Translations under genes and position numbers: made by a program
Source of the DNA: Eledone cirrhosa
Taxonomy: Eukaryota
Assembly: GCA_964016885.1 (NCBI GenBank)
Contig: OZ024741.1
Location: forward strand, 212,784,001 to 212,848,000
Length of the DNA: 64,000 nt
Direction: 5' to 3'
The notes under the pieces: generated by a model
The model's database searches: none
The model's input: the letters and a program-made list of their open reading frames with translations, nothing else
Told to the model about the DNA's origin: nothing
In this document: in pieces, positions 1,002-64,000 of the stretch
Layout of the letters: each line of letters begins with the position of its first letter
Position numbering within the stretch: the stretch's first letter is position 1

Positions 1002-1073
<72 letters not shown>

Positions 1074-1311
1074 ATATAGATAATCTAGCTGTCGTCTGTT
1101 CTACAGTGTGGATGTCATTCACTTCGCACAGAAGTTTTGTTCAAATTTATTGAGGAAATTTTGTGAGTTCAAACTTAATTTTGATACAATTGTGTAGCAT
1201 GACCCTCCGTCTGAACTGTCAGGCGGTGGGTCAGCTCATCTTTACCCCTCCTAGAGGTGAAAAACCTGTTTTAAAAAATTTTGTGTAAAAACTTTCAATC
1301 GTCTAACAGAA

Positions 1312-3211: not shown

Positions 3212-3244
3212 GTCTCTACACTCTCCTTTGGCTCTGCCACCCAC

Positions 3245-6649: not shown

Positions 6650-7049
6650 GTAAAGAAGTAAAGGAGAGGGGAGCACCTTCTCCATGTGCTCCCCGGGCAA
6701 AGGATTGCACACTTTTTCGGGGGTGTGTGCAACCCCCATCACGTCCCCTCCCTTTTGAGGTTATTTTCGATTATTTTCATGTTACACCCTTTTTACTCGA
6801 TTATATGTAAACTCCCCCTTTGTATTTGTCCCTTCTTTTTATGCCTTTATGGTAAATAAAGAAATCTATCTATCTATCTATCTATCTATCTACATATCAA
6901 TATATTTATCTATCTGTAGAACTGTCTGTCTGTTCGTCTCTGTTAAACCTATTCAAGCATGTGAATATAATTGGACAGACTTAATCATACAGAAAACTTA
7001 GAAGTAAAATATGGCGGATAAATATCATAATAATGCATCAAGACTACCA

Positions 7050-9365: not shown

Positions 9366-11141
9366 TTATCACTTGCAAGGAAAATTTGGAAGAGGATCTA
9401 CAGTGGATTTGATAACGATGGTTTGCATGTTTTTAGGAGAATTGTTGTGAAGGCATCAGATACAGCAGCTGAATTTTGTCTTATTTCATCTATGGCTGAT
9501 ATTACATATTTCACTTTTATATCTGTATAGTTGATGGTTGCCTTTTCTCCATGTAGGGCTGTAATACTGCATGCGCTATATTGGAGTGTGAAAACGCGTT
9601 TATATAGCTCGTTCATTACCTCACATATCCCTTGGGGGTCAGTAAGCTATTTTCATGATAATGTAACCCTGCCCCATCCTGTAGTTGGCCGAGGTGGTCT
9701 CTTTTGCGAATGCCTTAAGGTTTGTTTTCTATATTTTCTATCGCCATATCCTTTATCTCTATTCTCTTTTTTCATGGAAAAGTTAGAGTTCAGTTTCAAT
9801 TTCAAACAGTGCCTGTTTCAAATTGGATTCCTTTTTGTTCTTTAGTTGTATATTCAGCCGGTTTGAGATCTCCACCCTCACTTTATAAGGATTTTTCTAT
9901 CTGAGGGAATAACATTTATGTGTCTGCTCGCCTTTCTTACCTGAGCAAATGTAAAGCACATAGCTTATATTGTCATGAAATACTCAGGTTGCATGTTGAC
10001 ATCTTGCGTAGAGAGACTGTCAATCTAGTTTTGCTTCAGGATCTCCTCATGAATCCTTTTCCAGTTAGCTTTATGGTAGTCTAGGCTGGATAAAAATTGG
10101 ATGTTTCCTGTTGCCTGCATACCCACAATCTTCTCCAGACTATATCTTGTTATTTATACTATGGTAAGCTCCAAGAAGATTGTTGGTGTCACCTTAACAT
10201 CGTCAATGAGCGCCATGTTATTTGTGAAGCAGAGATCCAGGACATCATCACGTCATGCTGGGTGTCGTACCATTTGCTCTATGAAAATTATGTAAGGCCT
10301 AGGAGGGATTATGTCTGTCTTTGTTCTTGTACTGTCATTACTGAGAAGAAATGGCATTCGAGCTATTTGATCTCAGGGAGGTTGAAGTCTCCCAGCAGTA
10401 GTATGTTCAGATACTGATCTAGTTTGTTACTGCAACTTCCATATTTCTGAGACTATCTTCAAACTTGTCCTTATATCTAGGGTCGTCTTATGGTCGATAT
10501 GTGACACATATAACTGTTTCTACTGTTGGGAAAAGGCCAGCAAATACCCAGTACATTACCGGTACTTTATTTTATCGACCCTGTAAGGATGAAAGGCAAA
10601 ATTAACCCCGACGGGATTTGAACTCAGATCGTAAATGGACGTAACTATGCTGGAAAGCATGGCGTCCGACCCTCTACCGATACTGCCAATTCACCGCCTT
10701 TAATTGTTTCTACTTTTGGCACACAGGCCAATAATTACCCAGTACATTACTGGTACTTTATTTTATCGAACCCGTAAGGACGAAAACCAAAGTTAACCTC
10801 GGCGGGATTTGAACTCATACCATAAAGGGCCGTAACTCTATACTGCAAAGCATGGCGTCCGCCCCTCTACCGATACTGTTGAGTTCGTGCCAAAGACTGA
10901 GTTGTAATGTGTCAACTGCACTAAAGATGTGACATATCCACCAAGAATTGTTTCCCCAACTGCCAGTACGTAATACAACATACTTTGGTATGTGTATTTC
11001 CACATCTGCTATGTTCGCTGTCAGGTGTGTTTCAGTTAGTGCCATAAATATTTCTTGCTTGCTTGTAGCTAGATCTCTCAGGTAGGTGATTTTATTCATG
11101 TTGGAAAGTGTTAACCTGCCTCTGACAGATAGTAGTAGCAC
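9365..11141 (-). mobile_element. Decayed CR1/L2-like LINE fragments (endonuclease N-terminus and EN-RT linker), interrupted by SINEs
   Basis: IFMALTETHLTANIADVEIHIPKYVVLR (APE start) at 10815-11141; AIDEIRQNSAAVSDAFTTILLKTCKPSL (pre-RT) at 9398-9616. Confidence 0.55.
10515..10880 (-). mobile_element. Two tandem tRNA-derived SINE copies
   Basis: Two head-to-tail units with a B-box-like gagttcaaatccc, the conserved central domain and a 3' end gtagaaaca. Confidence 0.8.
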
Positions 11142-13701: not shown

Positions 13702-13763
<62 letters not shown>

Positions 13764-13990
13764 TAGATAGATAGATTTCTTTATTTACCATAAAGGCATA
13801 AAAAGAAGGGACAAATACAAAGGGGGAGTTTACATATAATCGAGTAAAAAGGGTGTAACATGAAAATAATCGAAAATAACCTCAAAAGGGAGGGCACGTG
13901 ATGGGGGTTGCACACACCCCCGAAAAAGTGTGCAATCCTTTGCCCGGGGAGCACATGGAGAAGGTGCTCCCCTCTCCTTTACTTCTTTAC

Positions 13991-16900
13991 CTACAGGATG
14001 GTATACAGAGAAGGCCCATTTACACAAGCCATTCTCGCCACTATCACCCACCTTTCATAAAACTGCCTGTGGCCAAGCACCTCTCTCTCCATTCTTATCC
14101 TTCTTCCGAAGTGATATCGGAAGAAGTAGACCAGACTATGACCAGAGAGGAAGTTGCCTGACCTCAGACCTTTCAATCGTGTCCACCAAATAACCTCTTT
14201 CAACATGGCTATTACGCACAGAAAAAGCGCCTTTGCTTCCTTTGTGAAGAGGGGAGGCGGTTTGATTGTCATCACGGACTCGGCGGTCAATTTAATCGGC
14301 GCCACCCGCGACAGCAGTCGTTCGGCGTAGCCCCACAGATCAGCCACGCCCGGACATTGCACCAATGCGTGCGCAACGGTTTCTTCGTGACGCACGCATC
14401 TAGGGCAAATCTTTTTTGAGGGATCCCTGCCCGGGCGCCCGTGTCTGTAGAGCCTCTCTCGAACGGGTAGAGCCCCCCGGTAGCACTGCCAGGCCAGTGA
14501 CTTCTGGAAGTTGTCCATTGGTCCTGGGCCGAAAGTCCTACCGAACAGGCTGGCCAGTTCGTCTTCTTCCATGTCCAGCGACTCTCCAAGGGTGTCATCG
14601 CCCCTGCTAGCCACCAGCCCTCTATAGAATGCTGAGGTGGATTCTCCACCGATGGCCTGGCCCGCTTGCCAGAGAGCCCTGAGCGCCTGAGCACACTCAG
14701 TGTGCCAGTCTCCCAGTTTTCCGGATCTTTGCTTGACACAGGACTGTAGCTCGGTGAGCGAGACGAGTCTCGGAAAGGCTCGTTTCACGAACGGAGCCCA
14801 CACCGGTTGACCAGTGAGGAATACCTGTAGGTGCCGTAGCCTTAATGGGTGCCTACGCATCATCAACCACGGCATCCCCAGCCTTCCTTTCGAAGGTTGT
14901 TGGCAGCAGATGGATCTTCTCACCATAGGAGGACGCTTCTTCCAAAGAAATTGGAAGAGCATGCGTTCCATGGTGGTGAGTGTTTCCTTAGGGCAAGGCA
15001 CGACAGTCAGGCGGTAGTAAGTGACGGACGCTATGTAAATGTTCGCCACCTCCGCCCGGCCTTTTAGGGACAGCTTACACTTGGCCCATTTCTGGGTTAG
15101 TGCAAACACCTTGTTCGTAACCTCGTTCCAGTTCTTTTCCACCTGGAGGTCCGGTCCAAACCAGACCCCAAGCAACTTTACCGGGCCCTTCGTCCAGTGT
15201 CCGACGACACCGTCAGGAGGCATCGGTCTGCCTCTCCACGTTCCGAGTTGGAGCCCGATGGATTTTTCCCGGTTCAGTTTCGCTCCTGACAACCTTTCGT
15301 ACTCCTCCAGTAAGGTACCGATCGCCTCGATCTCCGAGTCGGTTGATACCATTACTGTTACGTCATCGGCGTAGGCCGACATCGCTTTGCTCAATCCTGG
15401 TTCCAGGGGGATACCCTGCAACAACTCCAACTTCCTCAGTAAAGGCTCGAGAGTCAATACGTACAGAAGGGAGGAGAGAGGGCACCCCTGTCGAATGGAT
15501 CGTGTGATTTCGAACGGCTTCGAGAGGTAGCCGTTCACCTTGATCCTAGAACAGATGTGGTTGCTATGTAGGGCAGTGATCCAGCCTCTGAAAACAGGAC
15601 CGAACCCAGCCGCCGCTAGCACCGCATCCAGGTAACCATGGTCGACCCTATCGAAGGCCTTAGACTGATCTGAGTTGATCAGGCCCCCACCGAAGCCGGG
15701 TTTGTTGCCAACCCTCTCTATGATGTATCGCATGAGGTGGAGGTTATCGTGAATGGACCTGGATGGGATAGCACATGTCTGCGCATCTCCCACCAGGCCA
15801 CCCACGACAAGCGCCAACCTCTTTGCTAACACCTTGGCCAAAATCTTTAACTCTGTGTTTAGCAGGGTTATGGGCCGAAAATTATTTATATTATCCCCCT
15901 TGTTCTCGTCCTTCTTCACCAGCGTGACTACGCCCTTGGCTACAGAACAAGGAATTCTCTCGTTCTGCTGCCAATTGCAGTAGACCGCTTCGAGGAGTTC
16001 GGAGAAGAAGACCGGCATTGCTAAATAAAGTTCGTAAGGTATACCATCGAGACCTGGAGATTTGCGTCTGCTGTATTGGCTCAGCGCATCTCCGATCTCA
16101 TCAGCCGAGATTGGTCCCTCGCAGGACTCTGCCTCTTCGTTCGAGAGACGCGGCAGGCCGTCGAGGTATGGACCGAAATCCACGCCCCCGCCCGGACCCT
16201 CGCCTCCCCCGAACAATCGGGCAAAGTGCCTTTGAAAGGCCTCGCACATCTGCTTAGGCTCCCGGATCACCCGTCCATCTTCGTCTTGCAACGACCGGAT
16301 GGTGGATCGATTTCCACTCTTAGCTTCTGTCACGCGGGCCCATCCAACGGCTTTGGACCCCTCAGTACCTAGAGCACGTATTTTACTTCGAATGACGCAG
16401 CCTTCGTGCTTTGCATCGAAAAACTGGTTCAAGGCCGTGCTCGATGCCAGCACTCTGGCCACATCTTCGCTCTTGATTGCCTCTTCTAATTTACCTGTTA
16501 ATTCTTTCTCGTTTCTATTCCTATCGGCAGCTAACATCTTGCTATAACTTATTGATTCTGTTCTAATCTCTATTTTGAGAGATGCCCACCATCGGTTGTT
16601 GACGATTGCACCCGTCAACCTCTCCTTAACTAATCTGCTAATCCGGTTTCTGTAAGTCTCTTTTGCCGGTAAAGACAAATTAAGTTTCCAGTAACCGGGA
16701 CCCTGTCTATGTGTTTTCTCGAGATTGACCACGCAGGTCACTAATTTGTGATCCGTGTAGCCAACCGTGCGCTTTTCTGGACAGCTTAATATGTCCCTAT
16801 CCTTACTTCTAACTAAGAATCTATCTAAGTACGATCTAGATTGACCACTGTGGTTTCTCCGAGTCCAGGTAGGCACAGTTGGAAAATCTAATCGATATCT

Positions 16901-17428
16901 ATCGACCAAGTTAAAACGGTCGAGTAACCCCTTGAGGCTGTTACACCCCCCTCTATTAGAACATGCTCCTGCATAGTCCCAACGTGCATCCAGGATGTCA
17001 TTCCAATCCCCCGCTAGAAGCAGGGAACGCGACGTTCCCAGAAAAGTCTCCAAACGCTGGAAGAAGTCGGGCCGTTCAGCTCCGAAAGGGGAGTAGACGG
17101 CGACCAGTCTCAAGGCCGCACTTTCACTACTGCCAACGTCTAGCACCAACAAACGACCCTCCGGGTCCGAGTGCACAACCTGTACGGCAAGACCCAGGTG
17201 TTTTTGCAGCAGTACGACAACTCCACCCCCACCTCCGGGCTGACAGAGAGATGCGTGCATCTCAAAGTCATCGAAGGTGGGGGCCAGCTGCCGCACGACG
17301 CTGATTCGAGTCTCACAGATAACCATTACATTTATACTACATGACCTGAGGTCATTTAGAAGCTTTGCTTGCTTCCAAGTTGAGCCCAGGCCACGTGCAT
17401 TCAAACATCCTACTCTTAACACATCCAT
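13991..17428 (-). CDS. Tx1 ORF2: APE endonuclease + reverse transcriptase + C-terminal Cys/His finger, intact 1145 aa
   Basis: Uninterrupted ORF; LNARGL, ICET, GDWN, YLDR, TDH; KSPGLDG, RPITLLN, DQSKAFD, QGCPLS, YADD; CPRC...ETVAHALVQC. Confidence 0.93.
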   Translation of the reverse strand: MDVLRVGCLNARGLGSTWKQAKLLNDLRSCSINVMVICETRISVVRQLAPTFDDFEMHASLCQPGGGGGVVVLLQKHLGLAVQVVHSDPEGRLLVLDVGSSESAALRLVAVYSPFGAERPDFFQRLETFLGTSRSLLLAGDWNDILDARWDYAGACSNRGGCNSLKGLLDRFNLVDRYRLDFPTVPTWTRRNHSGQSRSYLDRFLVRSKDRDILSCPEKRTVGYTDHKLVTCVVNLEKTHRQGPGYWKLNLSLPAKETYRNRISRLVKERLTGAIVNNRWWASLKIEIRTESISYSKMLAADRNRNEKELTGKLEEAIKSEDVARVLASSTALNQFFDAKHEGCVIRSKIRALGTEGSKAVGWARVTEAKSGNRSTIRSLQDEDGRVIREPKQMCEAFQRHFARLFGGGEGPGGGVDFGPYLDGLPRLSNEEAESCEGPISADEIGDALSQYSRRKSPGLDGIPYELYLAMPVFFSELLEAVYCNWQQNERIPCSVAKGVVTLVKKDENKGDNINNFRPITLLNTELKILAKVLAKRLALVVGGLVGDAQTCAIPSRSIHDNLHLMRYIIERVGNKPGFGGGLINSDQSKAFDRVDHGYLDAVLAAAGFGPVFRGWITALHSNHICSRIKVNGYLSKPFEITRSIRQGCPLSSLLYVLTLEPLLRKLELLQGIPLEPGLSKAMSAYADDVTVMVSTDSEIEAIGTLLEEYERLSGAKLNREKSIGLQLGTWRGRPMPPDGVVGHWTKGPVKLLGVWFGPDLQVEKNWNEVTNKVFALTQKWAKCKLSLKGRAEVANIYIASVTYYRLTVVPCPKETLTTMERMLFQFLWKKRPPMVRRSICCQQPSKGRLGMPWLMMRRHPLRLRHLQVFLTGQPVWAPFVKRAFPRLVSLTELQSCVKQRSGKLGDWHTECAQALRALWQAGQAIGGESTSAFYRGLVASRGDDTLGESLDMEEDELASLFGRTFGPGPMDNFQKSLAWQCYRGALPVRERLYRHGRPGRDPSKKICPRCVRHEETVAHALVQCPGVADLWGYAERLLSRVAPIKLTAESVMTIKPPPLFTKEAKALFLCVIAMLKEVIWWTRLKGLRSGNFLSGHSLVYFFRYHFGRRIRMEREVLGHRQFYERWVIVARMACVNGPSLYTIL

Positions 17429-17461
17429 CTGGGCGGCAGAGCCAAAGGAGAGTGTAGAGAC

Positions 17462-19360
17462 CTACCTTTCCGCTTCCCGGGGTTCGGGTTGCACGACTTC
17501 CATGGTGTCGGGGGTGTTGGGTGAAGGGGTCTTGTGGTGGTGTGGGGTCGTCAGTGTGTGGTGGGGTTGGGGTGTTTGGAGTTGTGTTGGGGAGGGGAAG
17601 GGGAGGGGGAAAGCTTTTTAGTAGGACGCGGTTTATGGGTTTGACAGAGGGTGGTCCTACGTCCTCCTTAAAATCCTTTTTTAGTTTTTGGTAGAGGTTC
17701 ATTGGGATCTTTATTAGTTTTAAATGTGGGTAGTTTTCTGACGAAACAAAGTTTACACCTTCGATTTGTACCGAAGGATTATTGTATATGAGCTCATTTA
17801 ATTTATTATTGTTTCTGTTGATGTAAGTATAGTGTAATGTCTTTTTTTCCGATGGTGTGAGTGTTTCGAAGAGGGGAGGGGCAGGTTGGGTTTTGTTTGT
17901 TGCTGGAGGGGTGTTTTCTGTTTTGTTGGATTGTGTTGCGATTTGGGTGGGGGTTGTTTGTCCTTCTGTGTTTTGCACATGTTTTCTTTTTTTCCTTTTA
18001 ATCTGTCTGAAGGACTCCGTTTCTTCCTCCGAATTCGTTGGGTTATCTTCAGTGTTGGAGGGAAGAGGTATGTTTGCTCGTAATGTTTCCGTGTTGGTTT
18101 TCTTTGTGGGGGAGATGGATGTCACTATGTTAGACTGTGTTGTGTGTTGTGTCTGCGGTGGTTGTGTTGTTTTATTGAGTGAGAGGTTGGGTGGGCCTGT
18201 ATTTTGTTTTGGGGTAATGTGTTGTGACTGTTTGTGTTGTGGTGATGTTGTGGTTTTACTGAGGGACGGGTTGGTTGGGACTGAGTTTTGTTGTTTGTTT
18301 ATCTGTTGTGGTGGTGGTGGTGGAGCTGGTGTTGGTAGCAGGGTTTTCTTTTTGTTGCGTTGGGGACAAGTGGCCTTCAGGTGCCCTCTGCCTGCACAGA
18401 TATGGCAGGACAGCCTTCTCCCCTCCACGCTAATGTTTATATACCCGTGGTCCTCTAATAGGATTATGTCGGGTATTTGGGCGATGCGTTCAGGCTTCAT
18501 TTGTACTACCAGCTCTATACCTGTTCCACTGAACATATTGCCTGTGGTTTTCCCAATGGAAATCACGTTGTCATTCACTGGATCGATGAAGCCAGCTACG
18601 AGCCAGCAGTAGTCCACATCTGGCATCATTGCATCCAGCCATATGCGTTGAGTTCTTTTCCCCATATAAGATGGATAAAAGGTGAAATTTTTCGAGCGAA
18701 TTGGTGACAAAGCACATTTTTTTGCCGCCGATTCGTTCTTCATGATAATTGCTAGGCTTCCATACAGTCTGTCTTTTCTTATGAAAGTGGTTTCATTAAG
18801 TACTTCTGTGAGTACTGTTTTGATATCTGCTTGAGAAGGCTGTTCAGGTTTTTTTGTACTGTTGTTGATGGTCCGAAACTTGACCGTTCGGCTTTCAATG
18901 TCTTTCGTGAATTCTTGAGGCATTTTTACCGATAAAATACCATTCTCTCCTTCACTTATGTATTGTTTGGCGTCTGTGATCCTTCGTACTACATCTGAAA
19001 TGTTTTCCGCTATATAAGTCAAAGATTTCTTTGTTTTCTGTGCAAATGAAATCTTGTCGTCTGCTTTGTTTTCTGATATGGTGTTATTTTCAACTGTTAT
19101 TTTTGTGTTTGTTGTGTCTTTGTTTGTGTTATTAGTATTGTCATGCAATTTTTCAAATTTTTTTTTTTCGTTGTTGGAATCCAAGTCCAGATTTGTGTTT
19201 TCGTCATTTAATTTTTTCTCCGCAGATTCGTCCGTTTTTATTTTAATTTTTCCTTCCTTCTCTATGACGTTAGTTGGGAAGGAAGGGAGGACTAAAGCGT
19301 GCGAGCTTACAACTCTTACCGCTGTCCCCCACCACTATTTTCGTTCGCTGCGTTTAACAT
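17462..19360 (-). pseudogene. Tx1 ORF1 copy 2, frameshifted near both ends relative to copy 1
   Basis: 610-aa ORF 17352-19184 matches copy-1 ORF1 internally; the ATG equivalent (19360) and stop equivalent (17462) are out of its frame. Confidence 0.8.
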
Positions 19361-19596
19361 TTCTGTTAGACGATTGAAATTTTTTACACAAAATTTTTTA
19401 AAACAGGTTTTTCACCTCTAGGAGGGGTAAAGATGAGCTGACCCACCGCCTGACAGTTCAGACGGAGGGTCAAGCTACACAATTGTATCAAAATTAAGTT
19501 TGAACTCACAAAATGTCCTCAATAAATTTGAACAAAACTTCTGTGCGAAGTGAATGACATCCACACTGTAGAACAGACGACAGCTAGAGTGATAGT

Positions 19597-19671
<75 letters not shown>

Positions 19672-26155: not shown

Positions 26156-26220
<65 letters not shown>

Positions 26221-26221
26221 T

Positions 26222-26520
26222 TATTAAAATAACAGATTAAAGTTTAAGCAAAGAATCGCTGCTTTCACCCTTAACGGGATTTTCTGAAACTAACAAAGTC
26301 AATCTGTAAACACAGAACTGGATATTTCAAAAAACGTTGCAACCGGAGGAAGACAGGAAGACGATACTTTGGTTCATGGTGACGTTCGCTGGCAAAGAAC
26401 GGGAAAAAACGAATAATACGTCATTAATAGGAGCGGTGAAAAACAATTACGTTTCAGAAGATCCCGTTAAGGGTGAAAGCAGCGATTCTTTGCTTAAACT
26501 TTAATCTGTTATTTTAATAA
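26222..26520. mobile_element. Fold-back element of the CAGAAGA-HHR family (long arm minus, short arm plus) next to (TA)n
   Basis: 26222-26290 inverts to 26451-26520; the long arm is homologous to 46370-46578. Confidence 0.8.
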
Positions 26521-26606
26521 ATATTTGCTCTTCGGTTCTTATATACTTGATATATATTTTCCTTATCGAGCCCTCTCTGGATTTTACTCTTCAATTTTAT
26601 TATTAT

Positions 26607-26662
<56 letters not shown>

Positions 26663-26668
<6 letters not shown>

Positions 26669-26797
26669 CCGTACAGTAAATATTTATTATCAGCACAGAT
26701 TAAAAGTTTCATCAAACAATTTTTGCTTTCGCACTAAAAGTACATCGCTTTAGGGCAAATGCAGAATGTGTTAGCTTAAATTTGTTTAATCTCTGCC

Positions 26798-26840
<43 letters not shown>

Positions 26841-27272
26841 GTTTCTACTTTTTGGCACAAGGCCAGCAGTTATTCCAGTGTATTACTGGTGCTTTAGTTT
26901 ATCGACCCCGTAAGTTTGAAAGGCAACGTTAACCTCGATATATTTATATATATATATATTGTATATATTATTATTATTATTATTAATATATATAATATAT
27001 ATATATATATAAATATATCGAGGTTAACGTTGCCTTTCAAACTTACGGGGTCGATAAACAAAAGCACCAGTAATACACTGGAATAATTGCTGGCCTTGTG
27101 CCAAAAAGTAGAAACATTTATTATTATTATTATTATTGGCAGAGATTAAACAAATTTAAGCTAACACATTCTGCATTTGCCCTAAAGCGATGTACTTTTA
27201 GTGCGAAAGCAAAAATTGTTTGATGAAACTTTTAATCTGTGCTGATAATAAATATTTACTGTACGGGTGTGT
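26663..27272. repeat. ~600-bp composite palindrome (flanking DNA + (AAT)n + SINE 3' part) centred on an AT-rich tract
   Basis: acacacccgtacag... / ...ctgtacgggtgtgt; arms differ by a few substitutions and by (AAT)n length. Confidence 0.9.
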
Positions 27273-27295
27273 ATATATATATATATATATGTATG

Positions 27296-27327
<32 letters not shown>

Positions 27328-28250: not shown

Positions 28251-28254
<4 letters not shown>

Positions 28255-28609
28255 CTATTAACCAATTTTCACCCTGAATCTTCTGGACAATTAGATGACC
28301 AGTACACATGTTTGTGGAATATTCAGCAACTTGCGCTATAATACAAAATGTACTGCAACATTAATTCAATAGTTCAGCCTTTTCACAAAATAGCCACGCT
28401 AAATCTCCCCTAGAATAACGATAAAGGTACATGTACACGTGTCTGTGAAACGTTCAACAACATTCTTCTTAAATTGCTGAATGGATTGGTCAGTTGATTG
28501 AACAACTGAAACTATCTTCGTTGAAAATGAAGGAGGTCCAACACACACACACGCACACACACACACATACACACACACGCATACACATATATATATATAT
28601 ATATATAAA

Positions 28610-28661
<52 letters not shown>

Positions 28662-28705
28662 AAATGAGTCAGAACCCCGACGGCAGAGCTCACGCCGTTC
28701 GATAG

Positions 28706-28749
<44 letters not shown>

Positions 28750-28949
28750 CAAAAGCAATGTGGTAAGGAACCAGATGGAACATAACGCACCAGAGTACTC
28801 GATACTTTGGGTAGTAGAGTGGGTAATAGGAAACGAGTCAGAACCCCGACGGCAGAGCTCAAGCTGTTTCGACAGCTATATCTGGACTCTGAGTCCAGAA
28901 ATAGCTATCGAACCGGTGTGAGCTCTGCCGTCGGGGTTCTGACTCTTTT

Positions 28950-29008
<59 letters not shown>

Positions 29009-29469
29009 GAGCGAGTAGGACGCCGACGGCTGAGCTCAAGCCGTTTCGACGGCTAATTCTGGAATTAGTCCAGAATTAGCCGTCGAAACGGCTTGAGCTC
29101 ATATATATAAATTTATATATATATATATATATGTGTGTATGCGTGTGTGTGTATGTGTGTGTGTGTGCGTGTGTGTGTGTTGGACCTCCTTCATTTTCAA
29201 CGAAGATCGTTTCAGTTGTTCAATCAACTGACCAATCCATTCAGCAATTTAAGAAGAATGTTGTTGAACGTTTCACAGACACGTGTACATGTACCTTTAT
29301 CGTAATTCTAGGGAGATTTAGCGTGGCTATTTTGTGAAAAGGCTGAACTATTGAATTAATGTTGCAGTACATTTTGTATTATAGCACAAGTTGCTGAATA
29401 TTCCACAAACATGTGTACTGGTCATCTAATTGTCCAGAAGATTCAGGGTGAAAATTGGTTAATAGTATT
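28251..29469. repeat. Inverted duplication (~370-bp arms 28251-28620 / 29100-29469) enclosing three hairpin-element pieces
   Basis: aatactattaaccaattttcacc / ggtgaaaattggttaatagtatt; only a few mismatches between arms. Confidence 0.9.
28748..28953 (-). mobile_element. Fold-back hairpin element (family C) in (TA)n; further pieces at 28658-28708 and 29006-29100
   Basis: Homologous to 48649-48843 and 50136-50251; internal palindrome centred on tctggactc-t-gagtccaga. Confidence 0.8.
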
Positions 29470-30039: not shown

Positions 30040-31490
30040 AATGTAATAAAAACAAAGAACAAATTCCTTATATTAAGAAATTCATCATTTTACGATCGTT
30101 TCTAGGATGTATATGTGTGTTGGTATGTATATCATATAGATCTATGTAAAATATTACAAATTATCAGAGGAAATATACATACCTTCACATATACATGCTG
30201 TCTTCAGAAATGATGAGATTTGTTTATTAAAAAAAACTAACAAAGATAATATAATAGGTCTGTTTGGGAACAGGGTGTGAATTGACCAATAGAAAAGTAG
30301 TTAGAGGTCAAGCTGATAGAATAGTAGTAGTAGAAATTTAATTTAGGAGTAGAGAGTGCAGACTTATCTTTTGAATGAAAAGAATACTTTGAATGAAAAG
30401 AATACTTTGGGATGAAAAGAGGTCAAGCCGGTGAAGGGTACACCAACATTGGATGTTATTAAAGAATAATGTTAAAAACATTAAAGAATAATGTTAAAAA
30501 CGAAGGAAAATAATATTTTAGGGTAAGGGTATTAGTGAGAAATACCAATCTTATAACCGATCTATAACAAGAAATTAAATTAATTGATAGGTATACTTAT
30601 AGGGATAAATTTATATTAATTCATATGAATGTGATAAATAAGAATTAGATGTTATTAAAGAGTGTTGTTAAAAACGAAGGAAAGTAACATTTTGGGATAA
30701 GGGTAGTAGTGAGAAATACCAATCGTATATAAACTACAAGGAATCTAGATTCATAACAGGAAATTAAATTAATTTATAGGTATACTTTTAGGTATTAATT
30801 TTAGGAAAAGAGAGCTGTAAGAATGAAATAAAATTATGAAGTTCTCTGTAGTAAAGTACTAATTATAGGTTAACTTAATTAAACAAACTAATTATAATAA
30901 TATGTAAAATATAAGTGTAAGGTGTATATTAATTAGGTTTATAATATTTGAAGGTTCTTCTAATTCTATGTTTGCAAGATATAATTAATTCCTGTCGCTT
31001 ATTTAATAGGATATCCTTAGATTTCATGATTTCAAAAAAGTTCCTGGGAGCATAACCTACACTCGTATCTGTTATTTTGATAAGGAGTGGCCCTTTTGAG
31101 CACAATACAGGTCAGGTTGTAATCGATATTCTTCTTTCTATAATTATTAATTGTTTCAGCCAAGGATGTTGTATTAGCTAATGCGGCATTTTTAAAACTA
31201 TGTTTGTGGGTATTAAATCTTACTTTAAAATGGTTAGACGTAGCTCCTATATATGAATAAGTGGAGTCCTTAGTGCTAATTTTACATTTATAGACTATGT
31301 TATTAATAAGACACTTTCTCTTTAATGGGCAATTTTTTATTTATTCTACAGTTACAACCATTCGTGAATATTATATCAGGGGAGTTAGTCAAACTTGATT
31401 TTTGGAATACATTGAGTTCTTCATACGGATTGGACACCGTATATTTTGGTAGATTTATCCATATATATATGGTAGATTTATTTGGTAAAT
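30040..31490 (-). mobile_element. 5'-truncated Penelope-like element remnant (GIY-YIG endonuclease + 3' pLTR)
   Basis: Manual minus-strand translation of 30955-31360 (with frameshifts): CNCRINKK-CPLKRKCLINNIVYKCKISTKDSTYSYIGATSNHFKVRFNTHKHSF...CRLCSQELF-EIMKSKDILLNKRQELIISCKHR. Confidence 0.85.
30082..30216 (-). ncRNA. Hammerhead ribozyme with very long stem II, in the PLE pLTR
   Basis: UCAUCAUUU-CUGAAGA-[~98 nt hairpin]-GAAA-CGAUCG-UA-AAAUGAUGA: perfect 9-bp stem I, palindromic stem III, GUA triplet. Confidence 0.8.
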
Positions 31491-39086: not shown

Positions 39087-39588
39087 GGTTTCTTGGTTCA
39101 CCACTGGATAGAACTGGTCATTCCGTATGGTCAATCCTGGTGTAATATTGTGAAGAGTACTCAACGTAGTGCAGTTCACCCATCTTCGTTTGTGTAGTTG
39201 GTGGTGCGAATACGGAGTTAATTATAAATGAAGTAACAGGAGGCTGGACTGGTGTAAATCCTTGAAAGGTTTATTATACTATGATCATTTCAATGATCGG
39301 GTTCCATATGAATCCGGTGATATCATCAGGTATTGGAATATAACAAAGGAATATGTAAAAAGCCATGGGTCCGAAAAACCATGGGTCCGAGAAACCAGAA
39401 ACCAGCCGCCTTCTCTGTCTCTGGTTTCTCGGACCCATGGTTTTTCGGACCCATGGCTTTTTACATATTCCTTTGTTATATTCCAATCCTGATGATATCA
39501 CCGGATTCATATGGAACCCGATCATTGAAATGATCATAGTATAATAAACCTTTCAAGGATTTACACCAGTCCAGCCTCCTGTTATTTC

Positions 39589-39595
<7 letters not shown>
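39083..39595 (-). mobile_element. PLE-like fold-back element (palindrome 39223-39399 / 39420-39595) between (TA)n tracts
   Basis: Near-perfect ~176-bp arms with a 20-nt spacer; homolog at 19780-20035. Confidence 0.85.
39276..39333 (-). ncRNA. Hammerhead ribozyme motif (mirror copy on + at ~39486-39542 has a 1-nt stem I deletion)
   Basis: AUAC-CUGAUGA-[imperfect CGGAUUC..GAACCCG hairpin]-GAAA-UGAUCA-UA-GUAU; palindromic stem III. Confidence 0.6.
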
Positions 39596-41410: not shown

Positions 41411-41427
41411 AAGTATATATATATTAT

Positions 41428-41796
41428 AATATTAAATAAATGGAAACTATATTTATAAAACCATATTTATTTCATTATATATATTTCGGGGATATCATAT
41501 TAACAATATGCTATGCCTTCCTCAGACAAAATACAATATAAACAGTTTTATAGATAAATAGATTCGACATACCGTTATAACACCGACTTCCATTTGAAGA
41601 GGTTTAAGCTGCCAGCTTAAACCTCTTCAAATGGAAGTCGGTGTTATAACGGTATGTCGAATCTATTTATCTATAAAACTGTTTATATTGTATTTTGTCT
41701 GAGGAAGGCATAGCATATTGTTAATATGATATCCCCGAAATATATATAATGAAATAAATATGGTTTTATAAATATAGTTTCCATTTATTTAATATT
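41428..41796. repeat. Perfect palindrome, 184-bp arms, 1-nt centre at 41612; the element continues to ~41890
   Basis: aagctg-c-cagctt centre; arms match by inspection. Confidence 0.92.
41691..41756 (+). ncRNA. Hammerhead ribozyme motif (mirror on - at 41468-41533)
   Basis: UAUUUUGU-CUGAGGA-[..CAUAUU(GUU)AAUAUG..]-GAAA-UAUAUA-UA-AUGAAAUA. Confidence 0.65.
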
Positions 41797-41889
41797 GTAA
41801 ATATACTCCAAATATTTGTCGAGTGCTTTTATATCAGTTATAAATATTTACTAGTTGTAACCCAACAATTTTAAATATAACTTTCCATA

Positions 41890-48618: not shown

Positions 48619-48648
<30 letters not shown>

Positions 48649-48650
<2 letters not shown>

Positions 48651-48843
48651 GGAATGAGCAGGACCCCGACGGCTGAGATCCAGCCGTTTCGACGGCTAAT
48701 TCTGAGTCCAGAATTAGCCGTCGAAACGGCTTGAGCTCAGCCGTCGGGGTCCTACTCGTTCCTATTACCCACTCTACTACCCTAAGTATTGAGTACTTTG
48801 GTGCGTTATGGTCCATCTGATTCTTACTACATTTCCTTCGTTA
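48649..48843 (+). mobile_element. Family C fold-back element carrying the 3' half of a hammerhead
   Basis: Palindrome 48649-48764; GACGGCUAAUUCUG(AGUC)CAGAAUUAGCCGUC-GAAA-CGGCU(UGAGCUC)AGCCG-UC-GGGGUCCU; unique 3' tail to 48843; in (TA)n. Confidence 0.8.
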
Positions 48844-50999: not shown

Positions 51000-51560
51000 T
51001 CTGCCAGAATCGGTACAGGACCGGTGAAAATTTTTTGCGGTATTTAGTTAGCGCTCTTTCAATTCCGAGTTCAAATGAGGCTGAGGTTACCTCTACTTTT
51101 CATTTTTCCGGGCTCAATATAATAATGTGTTAATCAATTATGAGGACCAATGAAATCGAATTACACTGTCCCCACAAATTTCTGGTCTTGTGCCTAAATA
51201 TGACCCCATTTGGATTGGCAGTATCGGTAGAGCGTCGCACAATATGTATCGTGACATTGAGTTACAGCCTTTTGCGTTCTCAGTTCAAATCCCGCCGTGG
51301 TTAACTTTGCCTTTCTTCCTTACGAGGTCGATAAAATAAGCACCAGTAATGCACTGGGGTAATTGCTGGCCTTGTGCCAAAAGTAGAAACAATTATTTAA
51401 GTGTAAAAGGTGTCAAATTGATAGATTGGTTAAAACGTCGGATAGAATACTTTGTGATATTGGCTCCGACTCTCTGTCCTCTGGGTTCCAGGCCCACCGG
51501 GGTCAACTTTGCCTGTTATCCTTTCGAGGTCTATAAACATAGTACCAGTCTAGTAACAGT
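51000..51560 (+). mobile_element. Cluster of three tandem SINE copies
   Basis: Three successive gagttcaaat/gggttccag...gcct...atcctt.cgaggtc.ataaa...taccagt-type units. Confidence 0.7.
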
Positions 51561-56775: not shown

Positions 56776-57006
56776 CCAAAGATTAATATGGTTCGTTGAT
56801 TACTCAACGAATACAGTTTAACAATAGATTAGAAGCACTTAACAGTAAAATTTTCCTGGAGTTTTTAATATTATTCAAAATATTAACAAATGAAAAATAT
56901 TCGCATAATCAAAATATATACTTTATTATTTATATTTCAAAAGTATTCTGCCAATACGGGAATTGAATAATCAAGAACGTAGCGGTATGTCATATATCAA
57001 ATCATA

Positions 57007-57072
57007 TATTTTGTCTGATGAGGATGTACTGAAAAAACAGCACAGTACCTTTGAAATATATATAATAAAGTA
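57007..57072 (+). ncRNA. Hammerhead ribozyme motif in fold-back element 56775-57120
   Basis: UAUUUUGU-CUGAUGA-[GUACUG..CAGUAC]-GAAA-UAUAUA-UA-AUAAAGUA; arms ~56872-56945 / 57045-57119. Confidence 0.7.
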
Positions 57073-57130
57073 TATATTTTGAGTATGCGAATATTTTTCA
57101 TGTGTTAACATTTTGAATCATATATATATA

Positions 57131-57450
57131 TATGTAAAGTAGAAAAAGTTATTTTGATGGAGATGAGAATAGATATATATGAAAATTGGTGGAGGGTTGA
57201 AGAGTATGCATCGCAGTATTTAGTTGCAGTTCTTTATGTTTTGAGTTGAAATTCTCTCTCCGTGAATTTATCAATCCATCGCCCTCAACTGATACCGTGT
57301 ATATAATAAAACATTGATCTCGGCAGGAATTTCAACTTAAAACATAAAGAACTGCAACTAAATACTGCGATGCATACTTTTCAACCCTCCACCAATTTTC
57401 ATATATATCTATTCTCATCGCCATCAAAATAACTCTTTCTACTTTACATA
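57131..57450. repeat. Inverted duplication (57131-57254 / 57327-57450) including a degenerate SINE head
   Basis: gtatgcatcgcagtatttagttgcagttctttatg / cataaagaactgcaactaaatactgcgatgcatac. Confidence 0.85.
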
Positions 57451-57962: not shown

Positions 57963-58023
<61 letters not shown>

Positions 58024-58105
58024 GCTGCTGTTGCTGCTGCTAACATTACTACTACTGCTGCTGCTACTACTGTTGCTGATACTACTACTACTGCTGATAC
58101 TGATG

Positions 58106-58152
<47 letters not shown>
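57930..58152. repeat. (CTA/CTG)n microsatellite
   Basis: Direct inspection. Confidence 0.9.
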
Positions 58153-58153
<1 letters not shown>

Positions 58154-59231
58154 TTTATTTTAATTTTAATTTTATTTTATTTCTATTTTTCTTCTTTCAT
58201 TTTTCTTCTTTTATCCCATGTTAGAGAGTCCTGTCAGAAACAACCGTCTTGAAATTATCTGGTATCTGGATCCTCAAGCGAGGCCAACCGAGCTCTTAGA
58301 TGTTACTCAACCATCTTTGCTTTTGGCCATCTTAAAATACAATTTTAATTGCTTCTATTTTTGGCACAAGGCCAGCAAATATTCCAGTACATTACTGGTA
58401 CTTTATTTTATCGACCCCGTAAGGATGAAAGGCAGAGTTAACCTCGGCGGGATTTGAACTCAGCCCGTAAGGGACGTTACTGCAAAGCATGGCGTACGAC
58501 CCTCTACCGAAATACAATTTTAATGGTAAGTGACTTCATATTTGCTCATCCATCTCTCTATTGTGTCTTTCACAACTCCCTACCTCCTCAATCCACTTTG
58601 ATATATTTTCTTTGTCGTTTTTTTTATCATTTCTCTCTCTTCCTTCATTTAGTTCATCTATTCTACAATTTCTTTATTTACTTAGAATTATTCTTGTCTG
58701 TTTTATATTCGTTTCTTTTAAACATGTAACAGTTGATTCTCTTTGTCTTTCTCTACAAATCTTCTTTCAACTCTGTCTTTCTCTTTCTCTCTTTGTCTCT
58801 CTTTCCCTCTATCTATCTCTCACTCTATCTCTCTCTCTATATATATATGATCATATATATATAAATGTGTTTGTGCACATATATATATAAATATATATGT
58901 GTGAGTGTGTATATATACATATATATATATATATACAGTTTAATTGTAAACCAATCTTAAAGAGAAAGATGGAGATAGGAGAGGAGAAGAGAGATTGGTG
59001 AATTAGTTAGAAGCCAAAAGCGTAAAGGCATATGCTCAATGTGCAATATGTAGTGGAAGGCAGCTAGATGGCTGGGTTCATGCAGAGATTAGGTGCGCAG
59101 AGCTGGAAATATTCATTAGTTAAGCAAAACAAGACCACAAATTTCACAAGGAAGACATCATTTAAAGATTTTCAACATAGTTGCAGTTTAATGTAAGGAA
59201 TAAGGAGTGTAAATATAGTTTAATTCATGGA

Positions 59232-59286
<55 letters not shown>

Positions 59287-59290
59287 TAAT

Positions 59291-61743
59291 GTCCGTTTAC
59301 AATTGTTTCGCTACTCCATGTAACGTTTCTGGATCAAATGATTATAGATCATTATTGATCTGGTTCAGATGAAGATAATTAACTTAGGTAAAAATGGAGC
59401 AGCTCTTCAGAACTTCAAAAGAGATAATGAAAACATTGATGATGGTACGATGGAATAAGGAATATAAAGTAAGGTAAAGAAAGATGGTTACGTGAATGTA
59501 ATGTTCCCTATATTGGTATTTGACTATGGTGTCCTGGGTCTATCTATTGTCTGCTATAGGCAAGCGTTATTCTTCCGTCGAGGCTGCATTATTCGAGATC
59601 TGCCTATGCGTAACAAGATGGCCACCTAAGGACATATTTACCTTACTAATTAGAGACAGGTTTCAAGGGAAGTAACTCCTTGAGAATTTAGAAATTGTAG
59701 GTGATTTATAGCTAAGAAGTGCTAATGAGCTTAAGTGAGAGACAGTGTAGGGGAGGTAACTTATAATTATCTAATTCTGGGTTAAATATTTAACATGTTT
59801 GTTATAAGTAAAAGTGGGATTAGATGACCATGTTGGGTCAAATATTCTGTTGACAAAAGAAATTTGCCCTTCGATGTTGACAGCTAATAGTTATCTGGTT
59901 TCTATCATTAATCGGTATAGGTCGTTATAGAGTTATGTAATAGGCCTCGGTAAGACAGAGATCGCAAGAGTTTCTTCGACCATTGAAAGCTTGGGCTCTA
60001 GCTAAGATATCCCATGTTAGTGAGTGTTCAATGTTGGTTAATCTAAGGTTGTTAATGAGCCTAGCTAGAGATGTTGAACATCTATTGCTAGGGTCTCGGA
60101 AGGAAAATGAGTGCGCGTTATAGCGTACCTTAAAAGGGTTAGAGGTAGAGCCAATATAGCAGCTGGTATGTGATGCTCTTTTAACTGTGCACCTATATAC
60201 TATATTGGGGGTAAGGCATTGCCCGTTTAGTGGGCATGCATTAGGGTAACGGCAGTTGCAGTTACTGCTGCGGTTAGTGAGGGTAGGGTTGTTTAAACTA
60301 TGTGGTTGGTGTGTGCTAGAAGGATTAGATTAAGTATTGGTGTAGTGGTGTGGTGTATTTGAAGGGGGTCGTGGTACCGCGGTGTGGGAGTTATACTCTC
60401 TTAGTTTATGATGGTTGGTGTATTTGAAGGGGGTCGTGGTACCGCGGTGTGGGAGTTATACTCTCTTAGTTTATGATGGTTACTGAATGCGATGTTGCTA
60501 GCTAGGTTAGGTGTTGTGGAGAATGAGATTTTAATGTTGTTTTTATTAAAGAGTTTGTAATATCTTTGGTTGGGGGTAATGTTTAGATAAGATAGAGAAG
60601 AAGCGTTTATGGATATTAGTGGCTAAATTAGATGAGAATGGGGGGTTAAGCCAGGTGACCTATTCCTTCTAGGAGTTCTAGTGGAGTTGGCAGGGGCCTT
60701 CATAGGGTTATTATTACCTGGGCGTTTGTTATTTGTCATACAATTGCACATTCCTATTCTAGGGTTGATTCTGAGTCTGCTACTAGGAGTGGGATCTAGG
60801 CCTCTGCCACCATTATGGTTCCCTGTATAGGTGCTGTTACTGCTAAAATACCGGCGTATCTGGCTACATGCTAAAGTGTTTCTAGTTCTAGTGTTAAGTT
60901 TATTATGGTTGTGGTGAAGTACTGTGTTATGGCATTTAGGTATGTAGTAAATGGACTGTACATAACCAGATTTAGAAAGGACCTTATAATATGCCGCATG
61001 GTTCATAAATATCTCCTCATTTGCGGATAGCATGTAGATCCTATACGAGATAGATTTGATGACTGCTCTGATGACTTCCCTGGGTGGTTAGAGTGCGGGC
61101 TAATATATGTAAGTATTTCACCTGGTTTATGATAAGGGTAATATAAGTTATTGTTAAGATCTAGGGTACCGTCCAGGAAGTTTACTACCTTATGGTTCGG
61201 TTCGATGGTGATAGAAAGATCGTTATTTAAAAAAAATCTATGTAGTAAAAAACTATGTAGTCTCTAATTAGTAAGGTAAATATGTCCTTAGTGACCATCT
61301 TGTTACGCATATCAGATCTCGCATAATGCAGCCTCGACAGAAGAATAAAGCTTGCCTATAGCAGACAATAGATAGACCCAGGACACCATAGCAAAATACC
61401 AATATATGGAACATTACTTTCATGTAAACATCTTTCTTTAGCTTACTTTATATTCCTTATTCAATCGTACCTTTATCAATATTTTCATTATCTCTTTTGA
61501 AGTTCTGAAAAGCTGCTCCATTTTTACCTAAGTTAATTATCTTCATCTGAACCAGATCAATAATTGTTTCTACTTTAGGCACAAGGCCAGCAATTACCCA
61601 GTGCATTACTGGTACTGCACTGGGTAATTGCTGGCCTTGTGCCTAAAGTAGAAACAATTATTGATCTGGTTCAGATCAATAGTGATCTATAATCATTTGA
61701 TCCAGAAACGTTACATGGAGTAGCGAAACAATTGTAAACGGAC
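59291..61743 (-). mobile_element. 5'-truncated Penelope-like element with inverted pLTR (59291-59660 vs 61258-61743)
   Basis: Minus-strand RT thumb VVNFLDGTLDLNNNLYYPYHKPGEILTYISPHSNHP (~61080-61190); GIY-YIG NCNCRYPNACPLNGQCLTPNIVYRCTVK...CYIGSTSNPFKVRYNAH...CDLCLTE (~59870-60265); stops and frameshifts; inverted terminal copy. Confidence 0.9.
61545..61676. repeat. Palindrome made of a SINE 3' end plus ~20 bp of the pLTR it inserted into
   Basis: atctgaaccagatcaataattgtttctactttaggcac...cccagtgca-ttactggtac-tgcactggg...gaaacaattattgatctggttcagat. Confidence 0.9.
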
Positions 61744-61744
61744 A

Positions 61745-64000
61745 GAATGTGGTAAATTGTTTACTTTGCATAGGTGCCAGTGGATCACCCTGCCCATCAC
61801 ATCATGTCTCCAGCCCTTATAGTGAGTCCGGGCTAGGTGTTTACACTCGGATACAATGTGAGCCACAGTCTTCTCTCTCTCTCTCTCCACAGATCCTGCA
61901 CAGTGGGCTAGCCTCCTCCTTCTAAATGTGATGTTTCAACCACTTCGTTTTGAGGGCCTGCTCCTGCGCAGCCATTAACATTCCTTCTGTAGCCTTTTTA
62001 AGGTCTCCTCTTTTCAACCAGTTCCATGTCTGTGGATCTCTAAATTCAGTTTTCTCAAAGAAGGTACTATGAAGGGATTTTTCCTGAAGGCTGCTCTTTC
62101 TCCTTGATGTTATTTCCTCCTTGGACATCCCCTGGCCTACTGTCCCCTCCTTCAGTACAGTTCTGAGCATTGGCTCCTTACTATAGGTCACGTATTTGTA
62201 TAGGTTGTTTTTCTCCATCTGAACACAGTCCTCTATGCTGATAAGACCTCTTCCACCCTCAGATCTCCTTAGGTAGAGTCTATCGACATCACTCCTCTTG
62301 TGGAACATGTTGTAGATAGTCAATAGCTTCCTAGTCTTCCTATCCATTTCTTTTTGTTCAGCAACATTCCATCTCAGAATTCCCGCACTGTACCTAATAA
62401 TAGACACAGCTCGGGAATTTACTGCACTTATGGCATTTCTGCTGTTCAGATGTGACTTCAATACGCTCCTTACTCTCCGAATGTATTCAGTTCTTAACAA
62501 TTCCTTCATTTTTTTGTTCTTTATGCCATCAGCCTCCAGAACGCCCAAATACTTGTATCCTTCCTCAGAGTCAATTTCCTTTATCATCTCACCTGTTGGT
62601 ATCTGGATCCCGTTACTTCTGCTCAACCTACCACTCCTCATCACAATGACTCCACATTTACCAATACCAAACTGCATACATATATCACTGCTGAAAATAC
62701 GGACAGTGTCAACAAGCACATCCAACTCCTTCTCACTTTTCCCGAAGAGCTTAAGATCGTCCATGAAGAGGAGGTGATTGATGGTAAGCTCTCCCCTTCC
62801 CAACTTGTATCCTGCTCTCACTTTTCGCAGCATAATGGTCAAGGGCATCGGGGCAAGGACAAACAACAGAGGGGACAGGCTATCTCCCTGGAAGATACCT
62901 CTCTTGATCTTCACGCTTCCCAAGGATACTCCAGTTGATGTCAACTCTGTCTCCCAGGACCCCATACTCCTGCCCAGCAACTGTCTGATGTTATCTGCCA
63001 CCCTGAAGATCTCCAGGCTTTTGGTGATCCAGGAATGAGGCACCATGTCAAATGCCTTTCTGTAGTCTATCCATCCCATGGCAAGATCAGTGTGTCTCCT
63101 CCTGCAATTCCCCATTACCATCTTATCAATAAGCAACTGGTCCTTTGTACCACGTGACTTCTTTCGGCATCCTTTCTGTTCGTCCGGTAACAAGTTGTTT
63201 GTGTGGAGGTGATGGTAGATTTCCTCAGACACAATGCTCGTCAACAGTTTCCACATTACGGGCAGACATGTGATAGGTCTATAGTTGGTAACATCATTAC
63301 CCTTGATTCGGTCTTTCATTATCAGAACTGTGGTACCTTTTGTCAACCACTCTGGCACCTCACCCGACACCAAGCAGTCATTGAACATGGCCGTCAGCTT
63401 CGGGTGGAGGGATGTTAAATGTTTAATCCAATACCCCTGCACCTCCATCTGGGCCTGGTGATTTCCAGTTGGTTAGTTTTTTGGCTTGCCCCTTAAGAGT
63501 TTCAACTGTGATACTCAAATCAGTCTGTTGCTGTGCCTGCTCACCGATCTCCCTCTGTACTGTCTCAATCCACCCTGCCTGGGCATTGTGTCTAACATCC
63601 TGCTCCCATATTCCTCTCCAGAATGTTTTAGCTTGTTCCGCCCCAGGGATCAAGTCGTTGCCTCTTTCTTTCCCCTCAAGCTGTCCAAACAGCATCTTCT
63701 GGTTGTTGTCGAACATGCGGTTCTGTTTATACTGACTGACTCTGTTCTCGTATCGCCTGATTTTGGCACTCTTTGCTACAATGCGTTGCTTCAATTCCTC
63801 TATGATAATATTTAGGTTTTTACTCCTAGTTTTGTATTTTATTTCCAGTCTATTTTTAGTGCCTATGTTTTTTAGTGTCCCATTCAGTAGTGACTCAAGC
63901 TTTCCTATGTCATTCCTCATTTCCCCGATTTGCCCACTCAGTCGCTTCTTCCACCACGGCTCTGCTCTTTCTTGTCTGTTGTTTCCTCTCGCTTTTATAC
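61745..64000 (-). mobile_element. R4/Dong-like non-LTR retrotransposon (RT + zinc knuckle), frameshifted, 3'-truncated at the PLE, extends past the window
   Basis: ORFs 63423-63920 and 61922-63448: NWKSPGPDG, YRPITCL, WIDYRKAFDMVPHSW, GIFQGDSLSPLLF, LLFMDDLKL, RLYLRRSEGGRGL, MAAQEQAL; downstream CRICGEREKTVAHIVSECKHLARTHYKGWRHD. Confidence 0.85.

Follow-up and report, generated by a model that had tools for sequence, protein, structure and literature searches.

The stretch analysed here (the window) comprises 64,000 nt of Eledone cirrhosa DNA (assembly GCA_964016885.1, contig OZ024741.1, positions 212,784,001 to 212,848,000 of the forward strand), and all coordinates below are those of the window. 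At 59291-61744 it contains an element that we assign to the Penelope-like elements (PLEs), with two oppositely oriented terminal repeats (pseudo-long terminal repeats, pLTRs), one intact and one interrupted. The interruption consists of the 3′ end of a short interspersed nuclear element (SINE) of a tRNA-derived family, followed by an inverted duplication that runs out of the SINE and into the target DNA. The features concerned are the following.

59291..59657, − strand: intact 3′ pLTR, with a hammerhead core (59410-59306, 10-bp stem II) and then a (TTA)n tract
59658..61259, − strand: decayed PLE body, with the C-terminal part of a reverse transcriptase (RT; 61015-61248), plus a C-terminal GIY-YIG endonuclease (59856-60278)
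61260..61744, + strand: inverted pLTR at the 5′ end of the element, interrupted by the SINE (alignment to the intact pLTR)
61545..61557, + strand: mini inverted repeat, ATCTG-AAC-CAGAT, naturally present in the target (−1.8 kcal/mol as DNA)
61553..61564, + strand: left copy of a 12-nt target-site duplication (comparison with random flanks)
61565..61616, − strand (antisense): 5′-truncated SINE, the last 52 nt of the ~190-nt tRNA-derived family (alignment to sister copies)
61605..61616, + strand: fold point, an imperfect primer repeat (pairing and folding energy)
61617..61676, + strand: inverted copy, the exact reverse complement of 61545-61604 (sequence comparison)
61672..61683, + strand: right copy of the 12-nt target-site duplication, with a mismatch at 61682 (comparison with random flanks)

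Anatomy of the insert and its host

The insert was defined by comparison of 61260-61744 with the intact pLTR in reverse complement, which serves as the empty-site reference; the alignment contains a single gap of 119 nt and, elsewhere, 348 positions that match and 17 that do not. Before the insert, the target on the + strand reads ...ATCTG-AAC-CAGATCAATAAT, with 61564 as its last base, and is followed by the 52 nt of SINE, in agreement with the ~50 nt described in a first-pass annotation of this DNA. The same annotation had described an inverted copy of that SINE piece plus ~20 nt of upstream target. The 60-nt inverted copy does contain 20 nt of target, preceded by 40 nt of SINE, so that 40 of the 52 SINE nucleotides, and not the whole piece, are duplicated. 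With T61616:A61605 included, 61 uninterrupted pairs are formed without a mismatch, and a perfect inversion of this length is far beyond chance. At the fold point 10 nt (61606-61615) remain as an unduplicated loop; one pair is certain there, four of five pairs (an imperfect match) are obtained if the fold is closed to a 2-nt loop, and the 3-pair form is unfavourable at +4.0 kcal/mol. The SINE piece also holds a natural 5-bp hairpin (61598-61612, −3.6 kcal/mol as DNA) that ends 4 nt before the truncation.

The last 5 nt of the inverted copy, CAGAT, are ambiguous, as they fit the inverted copy and the resumed target equally, and this rejoining microhomology is supplied by the mini inverted repeat of the target, the 3-nt loop of which reads inverted in the copy (AAC to GTT). 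The target resumes at 61672 with CAGATCAATAGT, and 61672-61744 is identical to the intact pLTR at 72 of 73 positions, which confirms the resumption through CAGAT proposed earlier. A target-site duplication as such was absent from the earlier description; here a direct duplication of 12 nt with one mismatch is seen, a value reached by none of 400 random flanks, and the first 5 nt of its right copy overlap the end of the inverted copy. The 3′ junction is precise, with AATAAT (61559-61564) sharing 3-6 nt of microhomology with the (ATT)n tail of the SINE, and the final 3-6 nt of the left duplication copy probably mark the priming end. The right (5′) junction is complex, and no target was lost.

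The insert occupies the stem II loop of the hammerhead in the inverted pLTR, the core of which is mutated at 61510. In its counterpart in the intact pLTR (59306-59410, −), stem II carries an insert of 94 nt in which a hairpin and a second core-like word, of degenerate form, occur, and an Rfam scan of 58000-64000 returned no hammerhead model match to the pLTR ribozyme. The same scan gave only sub-threshold microRNA-like matches that arise from the hairpin alone, and a microRNA precursor was rejected as the best match (45.2 bits) lies below the Rfam gathering score of 80.5 bits. The body of the host carries frameshifts, stops and an exact 65-bp tandem duplication (60351-60480). In tblastn a 589-aa protein with RT and endonuclease (P0022), itself found through the endonuclease piece of the host, matches 61015-61248 (E 1e-8) and 59856-60278 (E 2e-26). 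The Pfam GIY-YIG match to the host body is sub-threshold (E 0.036), and an Atlas cluster match has a score of 0.95, with GIY-YIG present in 31% of the cluster members. By its coding remnants and its hammerhead-bearing pLTRs, one of them inverted, the host is classed as a decayed PLE with a C-terminal endonuclease (EN+), and its clade label follows motifs. A word-indexed protein search gave no full-length PLE relatives and one short match, and a PDB search with the endonuclease piece gave nothing significant. A short rearranged repeat lies where the body meets the inverted pLTR (61240-61262). A second PLE fragment with GIY-YIG coding sequence, 5′-truncated at (CT)n(TA)n, is located at 30940-31455 (−), and tblastx and tblastn of the window gave this piece (~30940-31455) as the only further PLE coding sequence.

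The 17 differences between the pLTRs (59351-59657 versus 61260-61564) all fall within 61294-61510, so that the 114 nt of pLTR around the insert, from stem II to the end, contain none of them (P 0.0014). In the inverted pLTR 12 of the differences are GC-to-AT and two are in the reverse direction (P 0.013). A second template and gene conversion are candidate explanations of this pattern, which renders the pLTR pair useless as a clock; dating of the SINE by pLTR divergence was therefore rejected as unreliable. The inverted pLTR ends exactly at the element terminus (59291/61744) and, given this end point and the 12:2 skew, does not have the look of a snap-back product; a second template primed from the other end would fit it better.

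A probable insertion with cDNA snap-back

Ten young copies that share the tail of the focal SINE occur in the 64 kb, besides older relatives.

Young SINE copies: 723, 10510, 10701, 26836, 38741, 44836, 46716 (a 28-nt piece), 51211, 58346 and the focal copy

Full-length copies measure ~190 nt and terminate in ...GAAACA(ATT)n. In the alignment, A- and B-box-like motifs are present in the full-length sister copies and absent from the truncated focal copy, as judged against the usual RNA polymerase III box consensus, and ARAGORN found no tRNA gene. Compared with seven sister copies the focal 52 nt are identical at 45-51 positions, the best being 51/52 with the copy at 44836. The copies are solitary, save for one head-to-tail pair (10510-10878), and show no partial-tandem or pLTR layout. 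Folding of the SINE tail RNA was no better than that of shuffles (z −0.35 to 1.26), and exact-pattern scans of prokaryotic genome contigs gave no stray SINE copies. A young SINE abuts the tail of an older one at 51005-51398. We presume a likeness of the family to the octopus tRNA-derived CORE-type SINEs OR1 and OR2 in the tRNA head, the ~190-nt length, the conserved centre and the simple-repeat tail. OR1 and OR2 are named in PMC4824008 and PMC5804259. A seemingly similar mix of Dong/R4-like, Tx1-like and PLE repeats appears in an Octopus vulgaris repeat table (PMC13282606).

Target-site duplications were tested in nine entries, i.e. eight young copies (the tandem pair counted once) and one older copy. 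Three are clear, at 15-16 nt for 38741 and 58346 and 12 nt for the focal copy, and one is marginal (null 0.11); the passages of PMC2912911 on L1 and Alu place the peak of their duplications at 14-16 nt. All four duplications start at ATTA and overlap the tail, and the focal site thus looks like an ordinary insertion site for this SINE family.

These features are probably best accounted for by one insertion event of the long interspersed nuclear element (LINE) type, by target-primed reverse transcription, in which the complementary DNA (cDNA) folded back, was extended and was joined through microhomology. The anatomy, the duplication and both microhomologies are read directly from the DNA, whereas the enzyme and the steps are inferred from the product. 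With a clean left junction that shares microhomology with the tail, and a complex right one, the + strand was likely the nascent strand. Between the two arms none of the 40 SINE positions differs, against 1-7 of 52 in comparisons with sister copies, which points to one template, and the inversion of the AAC loop to GTT implies that the left end was copied from a DNA template. An endonuclease would first nick the already integrated inverted pLTR after ...CAATAAT, the 3′ end of which would anneal to the (AUU)n tail of the SINE. Reverse transcription would then halt 4 nt past the small SINE hairpin, and the cDNA end may self-prime with 1-4 pairs, upon which a polymerase would extend it over 40 nt of the cDNA and a further 20 nt of target, made up of the 12-nt overhang and a few unwound bases. 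The copied ATCTG would become CAGAT and match the start of the overhang at the other end, such that the ends could join with no target lost. On established knowledge, the default is a LINE as partner of the SINE family and, for the fold-back, an end-joining polymerase of the host or else the RT. A nascent cDNA that snaps back and runs on into flanking DNA, as first suggested for this site, remains the simplest reading of the product, which is what is seen, and every junction base fits it.

Such a scar is rare but already known. Snap-back is a named 5′ junction class in the passages of PMC11371274 and PMC11331408 on R2 protein (PRINT) insertions, in which, as proposed here, the cDNA 3′ end starts synthesis on the cDNA itself or on target close by, ahead of 5′ junction formation, and the reverse complement is fused there. 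The template in those insertions is engineered, whereas a natural germline SINE is involved here, and here the copy passes the priming junction into the target and a 12-nt duplication is present. For somatic L1 insertions PMC10191854 and its preprint report 3-4 cases (0.3-0.4%) in which 52-220 bp of target are duplicated in inverted orientation, likewise ascribed to extra DNA synthesis as the insertion resolves; there the cDNA end is described as copying the strand of the other broken end, whereas here it would start on its own cDNA and then continue into the priming end. The snap-back form of synthesis-dependent microhomology-mediated end joining (SD-MMEJ), as presented in parts of PMC2943611, resembles the focal site in having a short primer repeat on one side (imperfect at the focal site), a microhomology repeat across the break, a new inverted repeat and poor priming, which its authors note to be thermodynamically unfavourable. 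The 60-nt tract here is longer than the short insertions emphasised there, and the break end here would be cDNA. Finally, the inverted 5′ copies and pLTRs of PLEs, as described in passages of PMC8557442 and PMC11167929, share a truncated retrocopy followed by an inverted 3′ part and an AT-rich target; the inverted PLE copy in this window stops at the element terminus and has 17 differences, unlike the SINE copy, which is exact and includes target.

Several observations weigh against the one-event reading. Five of the nine SINE entries show no duplication. Two of the ten young copies lie in fold-backs, while inverted 5′ ends are very rare in Alu (one case in roughly 5,500, derived from Table 3 of PMC2912911). 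The absence of mismatches in the 61 pairs, set against the 4.7% pLTR divergence, gives only P=0.055 and hence weak timing. A later break repaired by snap-back would give the same product. A partner LINE for the SINE is, by sequence comparison, not identified in the window: the SINE tail has no match to the two Tx1-like 3′ untranslated regions (UTRs; shuffle p 0.72 and 0.76), an R2/R4-like LINE at 61745-64000 is present without its 3′ end, and tblastx of the 64 kb gave no LINE coding fragment beyond these three elements.

The Tx1/L1-like LINEs, at 1002-6913 (+) and 13727-19671 (−), are full-length, 97.4% identical and each situated within (ATCT)n, and in the latter ORF2 is open over 1156 aa and includes endonuclease, RT and zf-RVT. 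The third LINE (61745-64000, −) has an RT closest to R2 proteins in the PDB (E 6e-22) and a zinc-knuckle/RHD region, and we take it to be Dong/R4-like. It is cut by the PLE, and its 3′ part was not found on the PLE's opposite side, which indicates that the PLE insertion was accompanied by a deletion or rearrangement. The SINE tail motif was not found in the literature searched, and is absent from the searched supplement files of PMC4824008 (just two unrelated V-SINE rows), PMC4758252 and PMC13282606. Passages of PMC4824008 and PMC4758252 tie bivalve SINE tails to CR1 and L2 and give other mollusc tails without a known partner, the latter source adding that tandem repeats are a frequent ending of SINEs. 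In the O. vulgaris table a small tRNA-CORE-RTE class appears, with no sequences given (PMC13282606), and the partner LINE of OR1/OR2 is not stated in the parts of PMC4824008 and PMC5804259 that name them.

Possible later repair and the fold-back background

The same sequence could have arisen in two steps, with an ordinary SINE insertion followed by a later break or fork stall at the SINE hairpin and snap-back end joining, the repair deleting the 5′ part of the SINE and rejoining at CAGAT inside the right duplication. We regard this as unlikely, although its final sequence is identical to that of the one-step model and fold-backs are common in the window. A masked minus-strand self-search gave 30 local rows, from which nine were dropped (two sub-hits, one simple repeat and six pairs regarded as separate copies of a family), while two pLTR rows were merged, leaving 20 local inverted duplications in 64 kb with arm identities of 86-100%; these are not fully independent, as four come from one family folding at a similar point and two overlap.

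Examples of local inverted duplications: 1-683, 26218-26523, 39223-39595, 41418-41805, 48648-48765, 56868-57123 and 57131-57450

Host DNA has moreover been folded back long after insertion, as indicated by near-identical arms that contain old repeats. The arms at 57131-57450, 97% identical, include the head of an old SINE with a likeness of just ~70% to the family; those at 28251-29469, 350 bp of old host DNA and 98.6% identical, include an old repeat that is ~71% like its relatives. The two-step version, however, requires two events within one 100-bp spot as well as a rejoining inside the duplication, and the 5′ truncation that it ascribes to repair is common at insertion in this SINE family. 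The focal fold-back also differs from most, as 17 of the 20 end at most 25 nt from a (TA)5 tract, with 4.1 expected (0/5000 simulations), whereas it is 2.6 kb from any such tract. Masking may draw arm ends towards tracts, yet 15 of the 17 have a tract within 25 nt at one end only. Conversely, 16 of the 67 (TA)5 tracts carry a fold-back.

Some of these fold-backs consist of fragments of repeats that are PLE-like in layout and contain hammerhead-core words, and most of the (TA)n fold-backs are called PLE-like by layout only. The 7-nt hammerhead core is enriched in fold-back spans (10/34, P 0.003), a figure in which arms are counted double and spans were drawn post hoc, and a relaxed scan for hammerheads gave no excess over shuffles (15 versus a mean of 9.7 and a maximum of 14). 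An exact-core scan gave two matches in the window, neither of them in a SINE copy. Inverted 5′ copies and a (TA)n bias are known for PLEs from passages of PMC8557442, and the PLE-like (TA)n fold-backs agree with them. A minimal hammerhead core with a 4-bp stem II (354-375, +) lies in the loop of a 294-bp inverted repeat (1-683). The fold at 28251-29469 is nested: its arms flank (TA)n tracts as well as a repeat family in three folded copies, and this family is also folded at 48648 and 50214.

A second young SINE is folded at 26664-27271. The layout of 26607-27327 runs from (TA)n through a 134-bp PLE-like repeat end (arms 100% identical), (AAT)n, 102 bp of SINE and AT-rich filler, and then in mirror image back to (TA)n. 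The repeat end is (TA)n-anchored and 75% like a PLE-like family over 70 nt, and the whole could be one chimeric event. With the 28-nt piece left out, one of eight young SINEs other than the focal copy lies inside a fold-back span, as expected by chance (P 0.56-0.64).

A possible Penelope enzyme, and what the scar means

The fold-back had at first been taken to raise the possibility that a Penelope-like RT mobilises this SINE in place of a LINE. That the focal insertion was made by a PLE RT/endonuclease, either because the family uses the PLE machinery or through a one-off jump from PLE to SINE RNA as template while PLE ends were made or re-cut, appears doubtful, and that the family as a whole is copied by Penelope-like RT/GIY-YIG proteins appears improbable. 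Fold-back as such is no mark of Penelope, because snap-back junctions are known for the R2 protein and target fold-backs for L1, and fold-backs are dense in the window irrespective of SINEs. Likewise the AT-rich tail, previously read as a Penelope hint, loses its force, as (ATT)n-type tails are not diagnostic (PMC4758252). The inference of a Penelope-like RT from the fold-back is not supported, nor is it refuted, no LINE with this tail being present in the window.

In the family version the last 15 bases would mimic the PLE hammerhead/RT start, and the SINE would insert at ATT in the manner of Poseidon, land in pLTRs and often fold back, which would make it a tRNA SINE with a non-LINE partner. 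The comparison of the SINE end with element termini, suggested earlier and made here within the window, gave no match to the Tx1-like 3′ UTRs and a short one to a PLE: between the SINE end AGTAGAAACAATT and the end of the PLE hammerhead, AGTAGCGAAACAATT, 13 of 15 nt agree if one gap is allowed (shuffle p 0.007 within the final 100 nt), a value equalled by 26 of 2366 windows, several of which are this pLTR. The match is, however, post hoc, short and AT-rich, is reached in ~1% by chance, has p 0.04-0.07 on longer targets, and is missing from three further PLE-like ends (p 0.62-0.92). In an older SINE subfamily the tail is retained and the motif is not. Moreover, the SINE copies contain no hammerhead core and lack a pLTR layout, unlike retrozymes, proposed to be non-autonomous dependants of PLEs in passages of 10.64898/2026.07.22.740005. 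[quoted passage not shown] As the duplications made by PLEs have no fixed length (PMC8557442), the duplication does not exclude a PLE enzyme.

The second folded SINE, joined to its (TA)n-anchored repeat end in a PLE-like layout, and the 114 nt of pLTR without differences around the focal insert also favour a PLE; against this, the one in eight other copies inside a fold-back span is what chance predicts, as is the presence of two of nine SINE copies in PLE-like DNA (P 0.49). In addition, the PLE inversion stops at the element's own end whereas the SINE inversion enters the target, and the GC-to-AT skew of the pLTRs fits a second template better than snap-back, which makes the assumed likeness of mechanism doubtful. 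The end match, the ATT targets and the second folded SINE beside a PLE-like repeat are thus weak hints of a PLE link. In the literature searched no tRNA SINE moved by Penelope was found, one paper there assigning SINEs to LINEs, and nothing was found on SINE self-priming with inverted duplication.

An assembly or sequencing artefact in the form of a fold-back chimera is very improbable: the arms are perfectly identical and PLE inverted structures are known to trouble assemblies (PMC8557442), but the target resumes in the right orientation with a 72/73 match to the empty site and a family-sized duplication, and other fold-backs in the window have diverged arms, so that such structures are genomic. 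Twin priming as in L1, or a head-to-head pair of SINE cDNAs started from the two ends, is more remote still, for although inversion, target duplication and 5′ microhomology are the signature of twin priming (PMC2912911), twin priming inverts upstream RNA without duplicating the 3′ end, and is contradicted by the same 40 nt of SINE present twice and identical and by 15-20 nt of copied target DNA beyond any RNA template.

The scar is an unusually legible natural case, as the empty site is kept 2.3 kb away in the other pLTR and every snap-back junction base can be assigned. It adds an invertebrate germline SINE to a class of junction so far known for R2 (engineered) and L1 (somatic) insertions, and on its own leaves the view of what mobilises SINEs unchanged. 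A PLE partner, if true genome-wide, would break the SINE-LINE rule and give PLE proteins a natural trans-template. The density of (TA)n fold-backs may be the more testable lead, and a high fold-back rate in this genome would be of interest, given the rarity of inverted Alu copies (PMC2912911).

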